Part shown: one piece after another, positions 30,795 through 39,909 of the stretch
Position numbering within the stretch: the first letter of the stretch is position 1
How the letters are laid out: each line of letters opens with the position of its first letter
Assembly: GCA_964536135.1 (NCBI GenBank)
Contig: CAZHVM010000001.1
Coordinates: 29,268 to 93,267, forward strand
DNA: 64,000 nucleotides
From: an uncultured Candidatus Saccharibacteria bacterium
GTDB taxonomy: Bacteria; Patescibacteriota; Dojkabacteria; SC72
Reading direction: 5' to 3'
The notes under the pieces: model-generated
Database searches by the model: none
Told to the model about the DNA's origin: nothing
What the model saw: only the letters and a program-made list of their open reading frames with translations
Position numbers and translations under genes: made by a program

Positions 30795-31169
30795 ATGAAG
30801 GGGTTAATAGAGATGAAATCACGGGAAGGAACACTCTTAAAGATAGAAGCAAGAACTTTGTTTGTTAAGGGAGATTATCAGGATCTACTTGTCGTACAGG
30901 ATGAGAATGATAAATTAATTCTCTATTTCGAGACTATTGGCCTTGAAATCCGGTGCGAAAGTAAGAGTAAAAATTTCTCCCGCTATGTAGTATATGAGAA
31001 AGGTGATCCAAGTTTCTCGTTCAATGGCAAACCCTTTGAGCTGGTCGGGTATGACACCTTGGGAAACAATTCTCTTGTCTTAAAGACTAGACTTCTGGAC
31101 TATAAGTTCGCCTTTAAGATTGATACAAAAAACAAGAGACTTCTAAGTGTCGACATACTAATCAGCTAA
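30795..31169 (+). CDS. hypothetical protein (124 aa), inserted between rplA and rplJ
   Basis: Uninterrupted ORF with native AT-rich codon usage; no SD, no recognisable motif; beta-rich composition. Confidence 0.4.
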   Translation: MKGLIEMKSREGTLLKIEARTLFVKGDYQDLLVVQDENDKLILYFETIGLEIRCESKSKNFSRYVVYEKGDPSFSFNGKPFELVGYDTLGNNSLVLKTRLLDYKFAFKIDTKNKRLLSVDILIS

Positions 31170-31401
31170 AAACAATCCACCCTAAAGAAAGACAGAGAGC
31201 GAGCTAATAGTAGCTTGATAGGTGACTTAAGGGCCCATCAGGCTTTTATTTTAATAAATCATCTATTAGCTCCTCTCAGCACCATCCCATTAACATATTT
31301 ACAAACTATCTCCTATAGTATAAAATGTCTAGGCAACAAGCTTACCCAGCTTATTGCTCTTAAAAAACAAACTGAAACACAATCCCTTAAGGAGGGAACA
31401 A

Positions 31402-31683
31402 ATGCTTCAAATCCCTGACCGTAATCACAATCGTAAGAAAAAACATATCGAGGATTGTTCAATTCCCCAGCATGTTAGAAAGCTCATGTCTGACAACGGA
31501 CTTACCTTCCCTGGAAATGGAAAAGTTTCTATCTTTCCCAGTGGGAAGAATTCGATTACAGTCACCATCGAAAATTTTGACGCAAAAGGGAAGTGCAAAA
31601 AGCCGTTTATTAAGGAGATAAATAAGAAATTAAACAAACCTGTCTACCTTAAATTTAAAGATGGCCATTGCACAAATTGTTAA
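31402..31683 (+). CDS. hypothetical small basic Cys-containing protein (93 aa)
   Basis: ATG preceded by AAGGAGG (5-6 nt spacer) and a TTTACA-17 nt-TAAAAT promoter-like element about 75 nt upstream. The track ORF starts earlier (31354) but the SD supports 31402. Five Cys including a C-terminal HCTNC. Confidence 0.5.
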   Translation: MLQIPDRNHNRKKKHIEDCSIPQHVRKLMSDNGLTFPGNGKVSIFPSGKNSITVTIENFDAKGKCKKPFIKEINKKLNKPVYLKFKDGHCTNC

Positions 31684-32881: not shown

Positions 32882-32906
32882 CTATATATTTAAGAATATA
32901 TAACAG

Positions 32907-32933
32907 AGGAGCCACGAAAGTGGCTCTTTTTGT
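32907..32933 (+). terminator. rho-independent terminator after rplL
   Basis: Stem ggagccac/gtggctct with gaaa tetraloop followed by TTTTTGTT. Confidence 0.75.
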
Positions 32934-33019
32934 TATCATTAATTCCCATCGACAAAGCAATATCCAAAGAAGTATAATTATACTGAATCTGCCAATATAT
33001 TAATTTATCAATATATCTA

Positions 33020-33688
33020 ATGGACTACACACCTTTTACTAAATGGGTATTGGACAATGGACTTTCGGAAAGAACATTGGAACTACTCGTAGGAATAGCA
33101 ATAGTTGCTACAATTGTAAGTCTAGCAAGATACCTTTTTGGATCTAAATCATTTGGAATATACGCGCCAGTAATTCTGGCTGTAGCATTTACATATACTG
33201 GACTTAGATACGGGCTAATCATTACTGCCGTTGTTATTGCATCATCCCTACTCTCTCACCTCATACTAAGTAAAATTAGAATGCATTATATATCTAGAAT
33301 TGCAATTAATTACTGCATTATAATAATGTCACTACTCGTTTTCTTCGTAGTAGTAAAAAAATATAACTTAGGGCTACCAAACATGTCTTTAATACAACCG
33401 CTAGCAATAATTTCCATAATTGGACTCTCCGATTTCTTTGTTAAACAACAAATTAAAAAAGGCTTAAAAAACTCCATCCTCGTACTCGCAAGCACACTCA
33501 TCATAGCCTCTTTGGGTTGGTTCATCATAACAAGGGAAACTATTTCAGCCTTCATGATTAACAACCTCTGGATAATCCCTGCCTTAATTGTCGTTAATAT
33601 ATTAATCGGACAATTTTCTGGCCTTAGATTTAAAGACCTTTTGAGATTTAGAACCATTATCCAAGATAAAGAAAATGTTAAAAAGTAA
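33020..33688 (+). CDS. polytopic membrane protein (6-7 TM), first gene of the ATP-grasp cluster
   Basis: 222 aa, almost entirely hydrophobic helices; stop overlaps the start of the downstream RimK-related ligase by 14 nt (translational coupling). Could correspond to the 7TM partner described for RimK-related ligase systems, but this is not verifiable here. Confidence 0.55.
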   Translation: MDYTPFTKWVLDNGLSERTLELLVGIAIVATIVSLARYLFGSKSFGIYAPVILAVAFTYTGLRYGLIITAVVIASSLLSHLILSKIRMHYISRIAINYCIIIMSLLVFFVVVKKYNLGLPNMSLIQPLAIISIIGLSDFFVKQQIKKGLKNSILVLASTLIIASLGWFIITRETISAFMINNLWIIPALIVVNILIGQFSGLRFKDLLRFRTIIQDKENVKK

Positions 33689-35135
33689 GAAGATAAAAGA
33701 AATATTGGGATTAAATAGACGAAACCAAGAATATGTTCGTCCCTTAAATTCCCCCTCATCCAAAAGGATTGCAGACAACAAAATCCTTACAAAGAAAGTC
33801 CTCGCAAGGGAAAATATTAATACTCCTGAAGTTTACAAACTAATTAGAACGAAAAAACAGCTCCAATTCCTAGACTTTGAATCCTTACCAAACAGTTTTG
33901 TCATAAAACCAAACCAAGGGACAGGTGGTAACGGTATCGTAGTACTCTACGGTAAGAAAAAAGGTCAAACAGCCTGGATTAGACCAAGCGGAGAGATAAT
34001 GACCGCAAGGGACATTACAGTACACATAGAGAATATAATCGAAGGAAGATACTCCATGGGCTCTAGAAAAGATATCGCAATCATAGAGGAAAGAGTCAAA
34101 ACGGATCCATTTCTCAAACAATATTCCTACAAAGGAGTCCCAGATATCAGGATAATTGGATACAACCAAGTTCCAATAATGGCAATGATGAGACTTCCAA
34201 CAAAGAAATCAAACGGTACAGCAAACCTACATTCAGGAGCAATATGTACTGGTATAGATATCAGCTCTGGTATAACAACCTACTCTATGCACATGCAAGA
34301 AAAAAGTCTCGTAAGTGACTCGTATGAAATGATAGATTCTACACTAGATTTGAAAGAAAACAGGAAACTCTCAGGGATCCAAATTCCTTACTGGGAGGAG
34401 ATATTGGAGATAGCTGTTAAATGCCAAAAAGCTAGCAAATTAGGATACATAGGAGTAGATATAGCCCTAGATGCAGAGAAAGGGCCCGTTGTTTTTGAAC
34501 TAAATGCTAGACCAGGCCTTGGTATACAGGTAGCAAACCAAGCAGGATTAAGATGGAGACTTGAGAAAGTTAAAGGTATTGAAATTAAAAGTATGAAGCA
34601 CGGTATAAGAGTAGCAAAAAATCTCTTCGGAGGAGAAGTTGAAGAAAGTATTGAAGCTATTAGTGGAAGAAAAGTTGTAAATATTAACGAAAAAATCTTT
34701 CTCTACTATAAGACACCTGTCTCTAAGAAGAAGAATGACCCTCAAAATCGTGAAGCTATAAGAGTATTTGTAGATACAGGCCTAATAACATCCCGTATAA
34801 ACAAAACTCTCGCTTCTAGGATAGGCTTTTTCGAAGCAATTAAATATTTCTACTCCCTCTCTATCCCCAAAAAGTTTGAAAGCTTCAAAGAGGCTCAAGA
34901 ATATATAGATTCTAACCAATCCACCATTATAGGACACCCAGATATCCTAAGAGTCGCCAAAATCGTAGAAGAGGGTGCCATAAAGACAAGACCAGTCATA
35001 TGTGTACATACAAAAATAGCCAGTGAGGAGAAAGAAATAGAGATGGTGGTAACAGAAGATACCACATATAATGTAGTAATAGGAAGAAATGAACTTAAAG
35101 GATACTTAATAGATACATCTAAAACATTTAAATAG
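33675..35135 (+). CDS. RimK-related alpha-L-glutamate-ligase-like ATP-grasp protein with about 150-aa C-terminal extension
   Basis: N-terminal GLNRRNQEYVRPLN...DNKILTKKVLARENINTPEVY region resembles the RimK-related (alpha-L-glutamate ligase-like) family. Central ATP-grasp features (FVIKPNQGTGGNGIVV, DIRIIGYNQVPIMAMMR, GVDIALDAEKGPVVFELNARPG). Confidence 0.65.
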   Translation: MLKSKKIKEILGLNRRNQEYVRPLNSPSSKRIADNKILTKKVLARENINTPEVYKLIRTKKQLQFLDFESLPNSFVIKPNQGTGGNGIVVLYGKKKGQTAWIRPSGEIMTARDITVHIENIIEGRYSMGSRKDIAIIEERVKTDPFLKQYSYKGVPDIRIIGYNQVPIMAMMRLPTKKSNGTANLHSGAICTGIDISSGITTYSMHMQEKSLVSDSYEMIDSTLDLKENRKLSGIQIPYWEEILEIAVKCQKASKLGYIGVDIALDAEKGPVVFELNARPGLGIQVANQAGLRWRLEKVKGIEIKSMKHGIRVAKNLFGGEVEESIEAISGRKVVNINEKIFLYYKTPVSKKKNDPQNREAIRVFVDTGLITSRINKTLASRIGFFEAIKYFYSLSIPKKFESFKEAQEYIDSNQSTIIGHPDILRVAKIVEEGAIKTRPVICVHTKIASEEKEIEMVVTEDTTYNVVIGRNELKGYLIDTSKTFK

Positions 35136-35136
35136 T

Positions 35137-36129
35137 ATGACAAAATATGAAGAATATTTAAAAGAAGCAGGAAATGTACATTTGGCTTACTACCTTGAAG
35201 CTGCAGATGAGCTTGGTATTGAGTACGAGATTGTTGTACGTAGCCTACTCGCTAGATTTACATACCAAGATAAACACTGGTTCATAATCAATACAGTAAC
35301 TCCGCTTACCCCATCCCCAGGAACTACCATTGCAAAAAGAAAATATCTTACAAATCTGGTGCTTAGCAGAGCAGATATAGATGTACCTAGACAACAAGCA
35401 CTTGGAAGTGCCATAGATGCAATCAAATTCTTTAACAAATACAAGAATGTTGTCATTAAACCATCTCAACAGTTAGGTGGTATTGGTGTCACCATGCTCC
35501 CAGAGACTGAAGAGCAGGTTATCGAGGCATACGAAGGTGCATTACAAAAAAGTAATGCAAAAGGAGCAGTAAAAGTACTAGGTGAAGAGTTCATAAAAGG
35601 AGAAAATTACAGATTCCTAGTAGTTGGAGATCAAGTGGTAGGAATAGTATGGAGAAAGGCACCAATAGTTATTGGTGATAGTAAAAACACTATAAGGGAA
35701 CTGATTGATATTAAGAATAAAGAGCGAAGAATGCTCGTATTAAAGCCTATTCCCATCGACACAGAAGTTGAGATAAGACTTCGAAACCAGGATCTTACAT
35801 TGGACTCAATTCCAGAAGAAGGCAAAGAGGTTGTTCTTAGATACAACTGTAACCTAACCACTGGTGGAACTACAGAAGAATGCTCTTCCATAGTTGACCC
35901 ATACTACAAACAACTTGCAGTTTCCGCCGTCAAAGAACTTGGCCTTGAATTTGGGGGTGTAGATATCATTGCACAGGACATTACAAAACAAGATAAGTGT
36001 GGAATTAACGAAATAAACTACAATCCGGGCCTTAGATTACATTACAAGGTAAACAAAGGGCAAATTGTAAGAGTAGCGATTCCAATAATGGAGTATATTA
36101 GAGATAAATATATAAATTCAATCAAATAA
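35137..36129 (+). CDS. cyanophycin-synthetase-like ATP-grasp (G-domain only) amide ligase
   Basis: Strong resemblance to the CphA ATP-grasp module: VVIKPSQQLGGIGVTM, ENYRFLVVGDQVVGIVWRKAPIVIGDSKNTIRELIDIKNKERR, TTGGTTEE, GGVDIIAQDITK, EINYNPGLRLH. No N-domain and no Mur-ligase (M) domain. Confidence 0.7.
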   Translation: MTKYEEYLKEAGNVHLAYYLEAADELGIEYEIVVRSLLARFTYQDKHWFIINTVTPLTPSPGTTIAKRKYLTNLVLSRADIDVPRQQALGSAIDAIKFFNKYKNVVIKPSQQLGGIGVTMLPETEEQVIEAYEGALQKSNAKGAVKVLGEEFIKGENYRFLVVGDQVVGIVWRKAPIVIGDSKNTIRELIDIKNKERRMLVLKPIPIDTEVEIRLRNQDLTLDSIPEEGKEVVLRYNCNLTTGGTTEECSSIVDPYYKQLAVSAVKELGLEFGGVDIIAQDITKQDKCGINEINYNPGLRLHYKVNKGQIVRVAIPIMEYIRDKYINSIK

Positions 36130-36131
36130 AT

Positions 36132-37802
36132 ATGGTCAAAGTAATACAAGGATTAAATCTAGAGAACAAAACTTCCATTATCGAGATTAATACAATTAAG
36201 ACAGATAATTTAGAGAAAATTCTCCGATTAATACACTCCTTTCATCCAATATTCTTCGAAGAATATAAATATGAAGAAAATACACTCAAGATATACTCTA
36301 ATCTGCCCTTCCTTTGGGAAGAGCTAGGTAAAGTACTGGAGCAGGATTTAATATATGACAAAGCATTAGAACAATGCCTAGAGATTATTAGAATTCGAGT
36401 TTCCTCAATGTCCACCATACCCCTACTCTTTGCAGCACATAAACTTGGCTATGAAACAACCCCAACAATGGCTGGGAAAGAACCTTTGTCTTACACACCC
36501 TCTTTTAACCGTCACTACACAATAGGATGTGGAAAAGGCTCAGAAATAATCTACTCCATCTCCTCTTCCAAAGATTCTAAGATTGCGAAAGAGATTCAAA
36601 GAGACAAATGGTCAAGCAACCTTGTTATAGAGAAATTAGGCTTGCCTCTTCCAGCATGGGAAATTATAGATTCGTTCACAGAGATAGAAGAAATTTGGAG
36701 ACATTTTAACAAACCAGTAGTTATCAAACCAACTGGTCTAACAGGAGGAAGCGGTGTTTCAGTAGGAATTAAAACAATCGAAGAGGCAAAAGAAGCGTAT
36801 AAATATGCAAAGGAAATGGTAGATGCTAAACTTAGAAAAGATTGGCAAACCAAGGTAATGATACAGGAACAAGTAAGCGGAGAAGATTACAGGATCCTTG
36901 TTATAGATGGCCATTTAGAAGTAGTGACGAAGAGAATACCTGCATTTGTAATTGGAAACGGTAAAGATACAATAACAAGACTCATAGAAAACACAAACAA
37001 AGATCCAAGAAGGGATACAACAAGCCCAGCACATACATTAAAACCAATTGAAATAGATCAACCCTTAAAAGCATATCTTAAAGAACAAAACCTTGAACTA
37101 GATTCCATCCCAGACAAAGACCAAAAAGTACCAGTTAGAAAGGTTGCAAGCATGAGCCAAGGCGGTATAACTGAAGACTTTACAGATAAAGTTGCCCCTG
37201 AAATTAAAAGCATCGTAGAAAGCATAGCTACCTCTATCCATGCCTTTGCACTAGGTGTAGATGTAATGTGTAAAGATATCTCCAAGCCTTTAACAAAAGA
37301 CAATGGAGCCATACTTGAGATTAATACCATGCCAGAGGCATACCTTAACCTCTTCCCAGTCATAGGCACAGATCGAGGATATGTTGCAGATACATATATT
37401 AAAAAGCTTCTTACAAACAACAAAACAAAGAAGATTGTAGTAATAGGAAATCCTCAGTATGACATCCCTACAACATTGAAACAGAAGAAACTCTTGTCTT
37501 CCTATTTACGAAATGAAAATACCGTAGGAGAATACAAAGATGGAGAAATAAGAATAAACTCCTTAACATTAAACAAAGATTTAACAAAAAGACAGGGTGT
37601 AGAAGCACTTAAACTTAACGCTTCTCTAGATGCAATTATAATTCACCACAGAAATTGGGAAGAAGTAATAAAAGATGGTTTAGGATTAAACAAAATAGAC
37701 CTACTCATGATTGAATCTTCCCTGAAGGAGAACACAGAGTATATGAAAATAATAAAAAGATACAAACGAAAAGGATTAATATCTAAAATTAAAACATTCT
37801 AG
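36132..37802 (+). CDS. cyanophycin-synthetase-like protein: CphA N-domain + ATP-grasp G-domain, Mur-ligase M-domain degenerate/truncated
   Basis: ATP-grasp block aligns closely with CphA (VVIKPTGLTGGSGVSVG, EDYRILVIDGHLEVVTKRIPAFVIGNGKDTITRLIENTNKDPRRD, VDVMCKDISKPL). Where CphA has the M-domain P-loop GTNGKTT this protein has IVVIGNPQYDIPTT and ends about 130 aa later. Confidence 0.7.
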   Translation: MVKVIQGLNLENKTSIIEINTIKTDNLEKILRLIHSFHPIFFEEYKYEENTLKIYSNLPFLWEELGKVLEQDLIYDKALEQCLEIIRIRVSSMSTIPLLFAAHKLGYETTPTMAGKEPLSYTPSFNRHYTIGCGKGSEIIYSISSSKDSKIAKEIQRDKWSSNLVIEKLGLPLPAWEIIDSFTEIEEIWRHFNKPVVIKPTGLTGGSGVSVGIKTIEEAKEAYKYAKEMVDAKLRKDWQTKVMIQEQVSGEDYRILVIDGHLEVVTKRIPAFVIGNGKDTITRLIENTNKDPRRDTTSPAHTLKPIEIDQPLKAYLKEQNLELDSIPDKDQKVPVRKVASMSQGGITEDFTDKVAPEIKSIVESIATSIHAFALGVDVMCKDISKPLTKDNGAILEINTMPEAYLNLFPVIGTDRGYVADTYIKKLLTNNKTKKIVVIGNPQYDIPTTLKQKKLLSSYLRNENTVGEYKDGEIRINSLTLNKDLTKRQGVEALKLNASLDAIIIHHRNWEEVIKDGLGLNKIDLLMIESSLKENTEYMKIIKRYKRKGLISKIKTF

Positions 37803-37804
37803 CA

Positions 37805-38749
37805 ATGAAATATCTAGTAATCGACAAAAGACAGAGAGTGAAAGAAATGGAAATACCTACCGCTTCTTCTAGGATATTGGAGGAGTTAAAAAAGAAAGAT
37901 ATACCAGCAGATTTCGTTTACAACGATGAGATAGAGATGCTTTTCATGGCAGGTTCCACGCAGATTAAAGCAAAGGGAATAGACGTAAAGGAGTACACGC
38001 ACATCATTTTTAGAGGTCATGCACTTCACAACGATAGGGAGTATGCACTAAAAAGATACATCATAGACTACATTGAGCAATATAATAGTGACAACCCAGA
38101 AAAAAAAGTGCTCATACAAAATTCCAAAGCAATTAAGAAATTGCCATATTATAATAAGGTAGCCATTTCTTTACTTTGTTCACAATATAACCTCCCCTAC
38201 TTTCAGACATATTACAGAACAGATGGTAAATATCTAGAGCCTAGAGATATGCTAAAAGAATATCCTTTAATAATCAAAGAGTATGCTGGAATCAATAGAG
38301 TCGAGATAATAGATGGAGAGGAGAAGATTAAAAAAAATGTTTACAAATTAGAAAAAGATGAAGATTTTAAACAAGAGGGATTAAAGGAGCAAGATTTAAG
38401 TAGCTTCTTCTTACAAGAATTTTCCAATACCGCAGAGGATTACAGAATATTTGTTAAATTAGGTAGGGTTGTTGGTGGATGGAAAAGGACTGCATCTAAG
38501 GGGTTTATGACAGTAAATAAGGGAATCTATGAAATGTATAATAATCCCGATAAAGAAATCACAGCTATTGCAGAAAAGATGGCTTCTGTATTAGAGGCCG
38601 ATTTTATAGCTGTAGATTTTATGTATATGAATGGAAAGCCTTGTATACAGGAAATAAGCTTACATCCAGGATTTAAAGCTTATGAGACTAAGATAGAAGG
38701 AGAACCTGTTAACATAGCAGAAGCTATAATAACTGCATTTTCAGATTAG
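37805..38749 (+). CDS. RimK-like ATP-grasp ligase (fourth ATP-grasp gene of the cluster)
   Basis: C-terminal half shows the RimK-type pattern DYRIFVKLGRVVGGWKRTASKGFMTVNKG...ADFIAVDFMYMNGKPCIQEISLHPGFKAYE; 314 aa. Confidence 0.6.
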   Translation: MKYLVIDKRQRVKEMEIPTASSRILEELKKKDIPADFVYNDEIEMLFMAGSTQIKAKGIDVKEYTHIIFRGHALHNDREYALKRYIIDYIEQYNSDNPEKKVLIQNSKAIKKLPYYNKVAISLLCSQYNLPYFQTYYRTDGKYLEPRDMLKEYPLIIKEYAGINRVEIIDGEEKIKKNVYKLEKDEDFKQEGLKEQDLSSFFLQEFSNTAEDYRIFVKLGRVVGGWKRTASKGFMTVNKGIYEMYNNPDKEITAIAEKMASVLEADFIAVDFMYMNGKPCIQEISLHPGFKAYETKIEGEPVNIAEAIITAFSD

Positions 38750-39909
38750 ATTCCTGCCTTTATAAATATCTCCATCCAGTCACTCTTAGTTGGAATCTTA
38801 CCTGCTTTAGGTATTAATCCCTCATCCACCCATTCGCACTGCTTAAAACTAATTTTCCCCGAATATAATTTCTGATACAAAGTAGAATCCTCTTCTAATT
38901 TCTTCATTACTTTTCTTAATCCTCTGAAATAAACAACATCCTTTGCATAAATACCAGGATATGAAGTGTCCGACAAACCTCTCTTCACCCTATATGCTAT
39001 ATCAAAGGCCCCTAGTTTAGAGAAATTACCCAAAAGTACATTGTAAAGCTGTCTAAATGACAGCTCCTCTCCGACATATATAGCCCATGCTAAACCTGCT
39101 TTATTTTTTAGTGATTTCTCAGGTAAAAGACCCATATTATTCTCATTCCATGAAGCTAATCCCTCCTCTATATCTAAATAGCTTGCAAGATTTGGTTTAC
39201 TTATAGCCTCAAATCCACTCTTTTGGCCATAGTACGAACGAAGAGCATGAGTGCCTACCTCATGTATCAAAGTCTTTCTAAGTTGAAATCTACTCTTACT
39301 AATATTTCCATCCACAAGTACTTCCTTCCTCTTAACCCCTACTTTAACTCCATTCTTAGCGATATTTAAAGACTTATTTACAGACCAACCCTCCAGCCCT
39401 AATTCTTTAAATACAACATTAAAAACAGAAACTATTCTGTCATACCCCAACATTTCTGGATCTTTCTCGTTATCTTCCTTTGCCAAATTATATTTCCCAT
39501 ATTTGCCTCGCAGGACTCTAGCTGAATTTCTAAAAAGCTTAGCCGAAGGTTTACCATACCTAGCGACAGAGATATCTGTTACTGCTTCATTGTTCCCTAC
39601 TGCATGCATAAGATCACTTGCTTCTCTCTTTGAATCTATAAGATCTATGTAAAAATTCGAAATCCTTGGATCTACATCTGAGATCTCTTTTACAGCTGAA
39701 AGTTCTTTAAGAATTTCTCTGTTTTTGTTTTTTACTATCCTATATTGAAATTGAGGCTCATATGTCTCTGAAGCAAAAAACTTTTTCTTCTCTGAATTCA
39801 AATTGGTTGGAGTAAATACTAATGCAATTGGAATTTTTAACTCTCCAAGGAGCTTTGTTACTTCCCCCACTTTCATAGTTTTCTTGGCTTTTCTAAAGAA
39901 TATATTCAT
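38746..39909 (-). CDS. HExxH zincin-like predicted peptidase, DUF1704/QEGLA-motif family-like
   Basis: HEVGTHALR (HExxH) followed about 45 aa later by DIEEGLASW (QEGLA-like motif). This family is reported next to RimK-related ATP-grasp genes. Convergent with, and overlapping by 4 nt, the last ATP-grasp gene. Confidence 0.55.
   Translation of the reverse strand: MNIFFRKAKKTMKVGEVTKLLGELKIPIALVFTPTNLNSEKKKFFASETYEPQFQYRIVKNKNREILKELSAVKEISDVDPRISNFYIDLIDSKREASDLMHAVGNNEAVTDISVARYGKPSAKLFRNSARVLRGKYGKYNLAKEDNEKDPEMLGYDRIVSVFNVVFKELGLEGWSVNKSLNIAKNGVKVGVKRKEVLVDGNISKSRFQLRKTLIHEVGTHALRSYYGQKSGFEAISKPNLASYLDIEEGLASWNENNMGLLPEKSLKNKAGLAWAIYVGEELSFRQLYNVLLGNFSKLGAFDIAYRVKRGLSDTSYPGIYAKDVVYFRGLRKVMKKLEEDSTLYQKLYSGKISFKQCEWVDEGLIPKAGKIPTKSDWMEIFIKAGI

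Follow-up and report, generated by a model that had tools for sequence, protein, structure and literature searches.

The closest described relatives of the protein considered here are the cyanophycin synthetases. CphA1 carries an ATP-grasp G domain and a Mur-ligase-like M domain behind an N domain of ~160 amino acids (aa), and 83% of CphA1s possess a Cx19HxxEH metallopeptidase site in the latter (PMC9262961). CphA2 consists of an N domain, a G domain and a truncated, inactive M domain and polymerises beta-Asp-Arg with the G domain alone; it has been described as a cyanobacterial enzyme that acts alongside CphA1 and cyanophycinase (PMC10273328). Our analysis concerns a stretch of 64,000 nucleotides (the window) from a Dojkabacteria genome (assembly GCA_964536135.1, contig CAZHVM010000001.1, positions 29,268 to 93,267 of the forward strand), and within it the protein encoded by the open reading frame (ORF) 36132..37802 on the + strand (window coordinates throughout), hereafter the target. 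The ORF is real and encodes 556 aa from ATG to TAA; its product is predicted to comprise a reduced N region, a CphA-type ATP-grasp G domain and a truncated, inactive M domain. With moderate confidence, and judging from homology and from analogy to characterised systems, we take the target to be a functional ATP-grasp ligase of the CphA lineage, CphA2-like in its build, which would perform one step in the ATP-dependent, non-ribosomal assembly of a peptide or poly-amino acid. Literature searches returned no paper on the target family or its gene cluster.

A second point of reference is the Rlo system of Pseudomonas aeruginosa, in which rloA (retropepsin), rloB (transglutaminase fused to a seven-transmembrane, 7TM, part) and rloC (ATP-grasp) form one pathway (PMC12239564). 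Deletions of rloB or rloC suppress the defects of rloA protease mutants, and RloA cleaves runs of at least eight glutamates; together these results suggest that RloC makes a poly-Glu-like product which needs trimming (PMC12239564). Rlo genes are furthermore linked to osmotic stress tolerance in Pseudomonas, and the ATP-grasp ligase RimK adds poly-Glu tails (PMC12239564).

The central ~325 aa of the target (aa ~106-430; 36447..37421, + strand) belong to the ATP-grasp proteins of the CphA/GshAB clade. The NCBIfam model for cyanophycin synthetase, NF010623, matches with E 4.7e-73 (query 130-523, profile 186-567 of 871) and TIGR02068 with E 6.3e-71, so that the alignment of the ATP-grasp half with cyanophycin synthetase, proposed in an earlier note made from the sequence alone, is borne out far beyond chance. 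Both scores lie far below the curated CphA1 cutoffs (246.7 bits vs 877 for NF010623, 239.5 vs 850 for TIGR02068), and the next-best NCBIfam matches are GshAB (E 1.5e-47) and N-acetylglutaminylglutamine (NAGGN) synthetase (E 1.9e-31). The best sequence matches in the PDB are structures of CphA1 (7wac, E 6.7e-44; 7lg5, E 8.8e-43) and of CphA2 (8fxh, E 1e-43; 7ta5, E 7.5e-41). Membership of the superfamily is seen in both sequence and fold: Pfam ATP-grasp families match the target, and the Foldseek matches of its model comprise CphA, GshAB, RimK, Ddl and LysX. Compared with CphA1 (TIGR02068/NF010623; 7LG5, 7WAC), the G domain is homologous and collinear, including RIPAxVxGxGKxTIxxLIExTNxDPxR and DISxPL; RIPAFVIGNGKDTITRLIENTNKDPRRD, at the start of the region equivalent to G-omega (aa 268-295; 36933..37016, + strand), lies opposite RVPAHVVGNGKSTIAELIEETNRDPQRG of CphA1, and DISKPL is found at aa 382-387. 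All strings quoted in the earlier note are present at the places it gave.

ATP-grasp enzymes bind ATP and Mg through the lysine of a VVIKP strand, a second lysine, a hinge glutamate, a DxR motif and Asp, Glu and Asn as Mg ligands. The corresponding residues of the target, to which we presume these roles from general knowledge of the superfamily, are K199, K241, E246, D252, R254, D377, E396 and N398, and all are invariant in an alignment of 22 family members with 56-91% identity. The Mg-binding E396 and N398 stand in EINTMPE (aa 396-402; 37317..37337, + strand), which ends in the family-invariant E402. With its catalytic residues conserved in this way, the domain looks like a catalytically competent CphA-type G domain.

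The C-terminal part (aa 431-556; 37422..37799, + strand) corresponds to a truncated first part of the Mur-ligase-like M domain and is referred to here as the pseudo-M domain. In the HMMER alignment, KKIVVIGNPQYDIPTT of the target faces RIPILSVTGTNGKTT of CphA1; the segment IVVIGNPQYDIPTT (aa 435-448; 37434..37475, + strand) stands at the position of the CphA1 P-loop (ILxVTGTNGKTT), GNPQYDIPTT faces GTNGKTT, and the Mur-ligase P-loop is gone. The family consensus at this position is KxIVVVGNxxxDIPTLL, with V436, G439, D444 and T447 invariant in the 22 sequences. A MAFFT alignment of the C-terminal parts yields four collinear blocks, pairing KIVVIG of the target with RIPILxVTG of CphA1, VGEYKDGEIRIN with VGYTxTDxxYI, NASLDAIIIHHR with DPTVEVAVLETAR, and GLGF with GLxF. 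The glutamate of the CphA1 LETAR block, a Mg ligand of Mur-type ligases, is a histidine in the target (IIIHHR, aa 502-507; 37635..37652, + strand; opposite AVLETAR), and the chain ends ~50 aa further on, 108 aa past the IVVIGNPQYDIPTT motif. The M-type domain stops after ~125 aa, with neither the distal M-core nor the M-lid.

The homology of this part to the M domain is, as far as comparisons can tell, real but weak in isolation. A hidden Markov model (HMM) of the C-terminal domain of the family found no match in the PDB at E up to 10 when used alone, and Pfam searches with the isolated N and C segments of the target gave nothing meaningful. The case for homology rests on full-length alignments, in which the family profile is aligned confidently to query 528-530 against both CphA1 and CphA2-like proteins, on the collinear motifs, and on a link through the truncated M domains of P-loop-less CphA-like proteins. 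The latter match the C-terminal segment of the family with 97% probability (E 3e-11; profile-profile comparison with hhalign) and the M domains of CphA1 with 98.7% probability. Hence the segment lines up with the beginning of the M domain and is not unrelated to it, and the decayed P-loop described in the earlier note is confirmed, together with the replacement of the Mg-binding glutamate. Judged by its motifs, the M domain of the target is truncated and catalytically dead. Because the G domain keeps its catalytic residues, only G-type ("backbone") ligation should be possible, an inference already drawn in the earlier note and a reasonable one. In comparison with CphA1 the target is without the P-loop, the Mg-binding glutamate, the distal M-core/M-lid and the Cx19HxxEH site, and it should therefore be incapable of side-chain (Arg) ligation. 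What is left of the M domain probably persists because it serves structure or oligomerisation, as does the G/M interface of CphA2 (PMC10273328).

What is more difficult is the interpretation of the N-terminal region (N' region, aa 1-105; 36132..36446, + strand), which contains two beta-hairpins and four helices. Before the G domain there are ~105 aa, or 128 aa if one counts up to where the HMM match begins, as against 160 aa in the earlier note, and a motif search found no HxxEH in this part. Residues Q6, G7, N9, H38, F41, W62 and M93 are invariant in the alignment of 22 sequences. In profile-profile comparison the isolated N' profile matches CphA N domains with a probability of 4-5%; it has no match among PDB sequences, and a fold search with the model of N' alone did not find CphA. 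The default full-length profile alignment starts at query 71-73, opposite residue 137 of CphA1 and residue 143 of CphA2-like proteins, which suggests that the last two helices are common to N' and the CphA N domain; only aa ~71-105 align confidently to these helices. A greedy/global alignment reaches residue 1 and pairs the family-invariant LQGxNxxS with LxGPNxWS of CphA (P about 0.01; none of 60 column-shuffled controls reaches the score of this pairing). It implies a deletion of ~50 aa in the target, whose N' region would be ~55 aa shorter than the CphA N domain, and it places F60/E63/E64 opposite the metallopeptidase residues H79/E82/H83 of CphA1. The N' region may thus derive from the CphA N domain by reduction and loss of the peptidase site, which is only partly demonstrated. 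Of the view that both N and G domains are retained, the part on the G domain stands and that on the N domain was overstated; the N-terminal part is not simply unrelated to the CphA N domain, since the last helices are shared, but in isolation it is not recognisable as one.

The fold of the whole chain supports a relationship to CphA2. A full-length AlphaFold2 (AF2) model (pLDDT 83.8, pTM 0.83) has its best match in CphA2 of Gloeothece citriformis (GcCphA2, 7ta5; E 7.9e-39, TMq 0.71, TMt 0.68), followed by structures of CphA1 and of CphA2 from Stanieria sp. (StCphA2). GshAB shares only the ATP-grasp module (TMq 0.45-0.52), and the higher TM score of the CphA2 match suggests that at least one flanking domain of the model superposes too. 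The C-terminal module of bifunctional GshAB (3LN6, 3LN7) is of the same ATP-grasp subfamily (Foldseek E 3e-23), but the match covers only ~370 of the 556 target residues, and GshAB makes a tripeptide, has an N-terminal glutamate-cysteine ligase domain and is without N or M flanks. Compared with CphA2 (7TA5; 8FXH/8FXI), the target has the same single active-type G domain and the same truncated, P-loop-less M domain; hence its architecture is not new, as CphA2 has already been characterised with it, and only the N part is incompletely shared. The differences are several. The truncated M domain has ~125 aa in the target and ~150 aa in CphA2; the N region is ~55 aa shorter than that of CphA2 and as a whole not recognisably a CphA N domain; the target comes from Dojkabacteria, members of the candidate phyla radiation (CPR), whereas CphA2 is cyanobacterial; and its genomic partners are of Rlo, RimK and MATCAP type, whereas those of CphA2 are genes of cyanophycin metabolism. 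No CphA1 or cyanophycinase gene was seen in 83 loci of the family within a flank of ~8 kb on each side.

The family is widespread within its lineage. A homologue search retrieved hundreds of proteins of 553-575 aa with 56-91% identity, of which those with a named source come from Dojkabacteria/WS6, and a scan of one genome per GTDB species found 80 loci, all in Dojkabacteria or in Patescibacteria metagenome-assembled genomes with generic titles. The protein is full-length in at least 80 species-level genomes and keeps a length of 553-575 aa across 42-91% identity. Between the target and its nearest homologue (L005; dS 0.86), omega is 0.054 overall, 0.070 for N', 0.038 for the G domain and 0.076 for the pseudo-M domain. 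Pseudogene status or decay is rejected on the grounds of this purifying selection, with omega at 0.04-0.08 in every part. Consequently, the suggestion of an evolutionary intermediate or degradation product of CphA did not hold up, given the full-length occurrence in so many genomes, the low overall omega, the conserved motif that replaces the P-loop and the precedent of CphA2.

An exhaustive HMMER search of 1.84 billion representatives separates the family from its surroundings. Full-length family members (P0121-P0129) score 404-645 bits. Distant relatives, 515-543 aa long, reach 238-278 bits (P0131, P0132, P0134, P0136), and CphA1-length and other P-loop-less proteins of 570-740 aa come to only ~140-177 bits. 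A neighbour-joining tree of the G domains gives the family a clade of its own; CphA1, StCphA2 with its relative P0187, and at least two further clades of P-loop-less proteins all lie outside it. As a side observation, many records with a Dojkabacteria-type locus (L004-L083) are titled "uncultured Candidatus Saccharibacteria bacterium", some also "Microgenomates" or "Patescibacteria group"; these titles look like generic placeholders and not like true taxonomy. Another observation concerns a P-loop-less CphA-like protein of 585 aa from a different clade (P0191; L087, 7001-8758; L088, 1353-3110). Its gene directly follows one for an 882-aa CphA1-like protein with Mur_ligase_M and Mur_ligase_C domains, and downstream lie another ATP-grasp gene, a P450 gene and genes for OEP and ABC export, an arrangement that resembles a biosynthetic gene cluster. 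Truncated-M relatives of CphA occur in several unrelated contexts.

The substrate pocket was compared by mapping residues of StCphA2 onto the target, with variability counted over 42 sequences. R308, D362, R389, S395 and T163 of StCphA2 are kept as R254, D309, R336, S342 and S94. R308 contacts bound cyanophycin, and changing the analogous residue of GcCphA2 abolishes activity; D362 and R389 were tested by alanine mutation (PMC10273328). Other positions differ. D212, which forms a salt bridge to the Arg side chain of cyanophycin (PMC10273328), corresponds to a variable position in the family (Glu in 20, Thr in 6, Lys in 6, Asn in 4 and Gln in 3 of the 42). N393, whose change to alanine inactivates StCphA2 (PMC10273328), is replaced by the invariant Ser340, and A453/G455, which make backbone contacts to the primer terminus, the Gly backbone amide holding the primer carboxylate (PMC10273328), are replaced by Met400 and the invariant Glu402. 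Ser340 lies in the large-loop signature RKVASMSQGG (aa 336-345; 37137..37166, + strand), at the place of the Asn of CphA1 and CphA2. Among the best 150 representatives, the motif RK[VA]AS[MV]SQGG is confined to the target family and its distant relatives, and CphA1 and CphA2-like proteins have A-N-[LIV]-S-x-G-G at the same loop. The full set of CphA2 residues that bind cyanophycin or beta-Asp-Arg is not conserved in the target. As the target has lost several of the contacts that CphA2 makes to cyanophycin or to the incoming dipeptide, the residues being replaced, a cyanophycin-type substrate appears unlikely. The pattern of replacements argues for a pocket that was remodelled and then fixed, and for a substrate other than cyanophycin.

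Directly upstream of the target gene lies a gene for a stand-alone G domain of the CphA/GshAB type (gene 3; 35137..36129, + strand; 330 aa), whose presence the earlier note had correctly recognised. The G-only protein matches the CphA model with E 9e-60 and keeps the Asn of the large loop (RYNCNLTTGG). With the target's G domain it shares only 33% identity, about as much as either shares with CphA1, and in the G-domain tree the two proteins fall into separate clades, the G-only protein on a long branch. On the basis of identity and clades, a recent duplication is rejected. Subfunctionalisation with this paralog, as had been suggested, is not supported by these values or by the fact that both genes are fixed side by side throughout the lineage, along with two more ATP-grasp genes; by all appearances the two are old, distinct paralogs and not the halves of a recently split CphA. 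The tblastn match spans of ~2.47 kb in the genome scan most likely arise because a weak match in the upstream G-only paralog is joined on, and they do not point to a longer gene.

Five genes, of which the target gene is the fourth, follow one another closely on the + strand, with spacings of -14, 1, 2 and 2 nt. Gene 1 (33020..33688, + strand) encodes a membrane protein of 222 aa that corresponds to the 7TM part of RloB (PF14402, E 4.6e-17); PF14402 and NF052267 match in the 7TM part only (profile 56-247 and 311-508), and a transglutaminase domain is lacking. Gene 2 (33675..35135, + strand) encodes an RloC-like ATP-grasp protein of 486 aa (PF14397, E 4.3e-69; TIGR02291, E 4.1e-85). Its C-terminal ~170 aa contain a DTG motif at aa 367 and show weak matches to Asp-protease families of Pfam (E 0.07-0.2), and the homologous protein of one rearranged locus (L086) has a weak RimB-like match (PF05618); a PDB sequence search with this part found no retropepsin match. 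The protein appears to be a fusion of a ligase and a retropepsin/RimB-like protease, and since the protease is fused to the ligase it is presumably cytoplasmic. Behind the G-only gene and the target gene follows gene 5 (37805..38749, + strand), which encodes a RimK-like ATP-grasp protein of 314 aa according to its Pfam and NCBIfam matches. Gene 6 (38746..39909, - strand) is convergent, overlaps the RimK-like gene by 4 nt and encodes a metallopeptidase of 387 aa of the MATCAP/QEGLA family (DUF1704; PF08014, E 7.9e-25; TIGR02421, E 6.6e-34) with intact HEVGTH (aa 216) and EEGLA (aa 248) motifs.

The best sigma-70-like site of the region, TCGACA-18-TATAAT (11/12 positions; 32949..32978, + strand), lies 42 nt before the 7TM gene and is the likely promoter of the operon. 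A terminator-like hairpin with an 11-bp stem (32905-32930) stands directly after rplL, and the promoter-like site begins within 20 nt of it. This arrangement suggests that the ligase operon is transcribed apart from the ribosomal protein genes. The order L10, L7/L12, 7TM, RloC-like, G-only, target, RimK-like, convergent MATCAP-like and MreB is found in 83 of 83 loci. Where the loci differ, flanking genes are absent (a contig edge cuts off many of the loci) or, in a few cases, an ORF has been called twice. Throughout the Dojkabacteria the six genes form a fixed set. Relatives with 37-39% identity (P0131, P0134) are accompanied by the same six genes in rearranged order, with the target homologue downstream of the MATCAP-like gene. 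That the genes are still together after rearrangement is a good indication that they are functionally linked. In the rearranged loci (L084, L085, L086) the cluster still adjoins rplJ-rplL, which are divergent there, so that this linkage survives inversion as well.

Two further features of the surrounding DNA were observed. Between the L1 and L10 genes there are two ORFs without annotation, of 124 aa and 109 aa (30795-31683, + strand), and small genes without an assigned family occur at this spot in two related loci too (L001, L002), where their sizes and strands differ. The GC skew and the AT skew of the window are negative to ~28 kb, near zero or positive from ~28 to 38 kb, where the ribosomal and ligase genes of the + strand lie, and then negative again, a pattern that is probably due to the orientation of the genes and not to a replication landmark.

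In its composition the cluster resembles an expanded Rlo system. With RloABC and RimK/RimB it shares the 7TM protein (PF14402), the ATPgrasp_ST/TIGR02291 ligase (PF14397), the weakly detected retropepsin-like domain and a RimK-like ligase, all of them co-located. It differs from the Pseudomonas system in that the 7TM protein is without the (inactive) transglutaminase domain of RloB and in that the protease is fused to the ligase, whereas Pseudomonas RloA is a separate secreted enzyme. Beyond RloABC, it adds three ligases and the MATCAP-like peptidase. The target itself has no counterpart in rloABC and constitutes an addition to the module, not a defining member. MATCAP-family enzymes take the terminal residue off acidic tubulin tails, and we note that ATP-grasp ligases beside a MATCAP-type carboxypeptidase recall the cycle of tubulin tail ligase and MATCAP. 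By analogy with the activities of RloABC, RimK and MATCAP, the theme of the cluster may be the synthesis and trimming of acidic peptides or tails, and its product is probably acidic and not cyanophycin.

According to the model that we favour, the target would use ATP to convert the C-terminal carboxylate of a lengthening peptide or poly-amino-acid chain into an acyl phosphate. An incoming amino acid or small peptide would attack this with its amino group and thus be joined to the chain. Trimming of the product would be the task of the two peptidases of the cluster, and the 7TM protein would deal with it at the membrane; instead of a free peptide or poly-amino acid, the product could also be a peptide tail. 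Several points weigh against this model. Asn393, essential in StCphA2, is Ser in the target, so that a different chemistry or a reduced activity is possible. The equivalent of His267 of SuCphA1 is Gly/Ala; the H267A mutant served as the G-dead control in CphA1 (PMC9262961), and this loop also differs between CphA1 and CphA2. Furthermore, the link to Rlo draws on domain homology of the neighbours and on conserved gene order, and the neighbour-joining tree carries no support values.

Part of the same evidence could be taken to mean that the target is simply a CphA2, which polymerises beta-Asp-Arg to cyanophycin. GcCphA2 is the best structural match and has the same truncated, P-loop-less layout of the M domain, R254, D309, R336 and S342 are kept at positions important in StCphA2, and some public records already name members of the family "cyanophycin synthetase". 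However, the family stands in its own clade, away from StCphA2 and P0187, and its N domain is not detectably homologous as a whole; the position of D212 is variable, and N393 and G455 have given way to an invariant Ser and an invariant Glu. The neighbourhood is of Rlo, RimK and MATCAP type, and neither CphA1 nor cyanophycinase was seen in the 83 loci within ~8 kb on each side. We consider cyanophycin synthesis very unlikely. Less improbable, though still unlikely, is a small-molecule ligase whose product is a defined di- or tripeptide, for example an osmolyte, in the manner of GshB or NAGGN synthetase and without polymerisation. The matches of the G domain to GshAB and NAGGN synthetase would agree with such an activity, as would the connection of the Rlo genes to osmotic stress tolerance in Pseudomonas (PMC12239564), but the CphA models score clearly higher (247 vs 163 bits), and the N' and pseudo-M flanks belong to the polymerases CphA1 and CphA2, not to GshB. 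Moreover, one of the two peptidases of the cluster is of a retropepsin type whose Pseudomonas representative cuts long poly-Glu, so that a peptide or polymer is the better-fitting substrate.

We find it scarcely credible that the target is a decaying or non-catalytic remnant of CphA, i.e. a pseudoenzyme or scaffold. The loss of the catalytic motifs of the M domain, the missing C-terminal lobe, the shortened N region and the change of N393 to Ser could be read in this way, but the low omega in every part and the full-length conservation across species speak against it, as does the invariance of all canonical ATP-grasp catalytic residues. The substituted positions are themselves invariant, which indicates that they are fixed rather than drifting. 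The functional ligase described above is therefore the interpretation that we retain for the target. For the cluster as a whole, a more far-reaching hypothesis can be offered only tentatively, and we hold it to be possible but rather doubtful: four ATP-grasp ligases, a retropepsin-like endopeptidase, a MATCAP-like carboxypeptidase and the 7TM protein might constitute an undescribed machine in which the target polymerises the backbone processively. Decorating or capping the chain, in place of the Mur-type M domain that has been lost, would fall to the other ligases. The product of this machine would be a new, non-ribosomal acidic heteropolymer or protein-tail modification, handled at the cell envelope, a bacterial counterpart of the tubulin-tail ligase/MATCAP cycle.

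The example of CphA2 made clear that a cyanophycin synthetase whose M domain is dead can persist and work with the G domain alone. In the target family the same design is fixed in small-genome CPR bacteria, with a remodelled pocket and in an operon that locks it together with two peptidases, an RloB-like membrane protein and three more ligases of the ATP-grasp type. CphA-like proteins without a P-loop exist in large numbers and in several clades, and are therefore no cyanobacterial oddity. The family furthermore serves as a warning against the annotation of genes of this type as "cyanophycin synthetase". The target represents the known CphA2 design in a new form that extends over a whole lineage; the more interesting object is the Rlo-type multi-ligase cluster, which, streamlined, strictly conserved and expanded, provides a second handle on the products of such systems.

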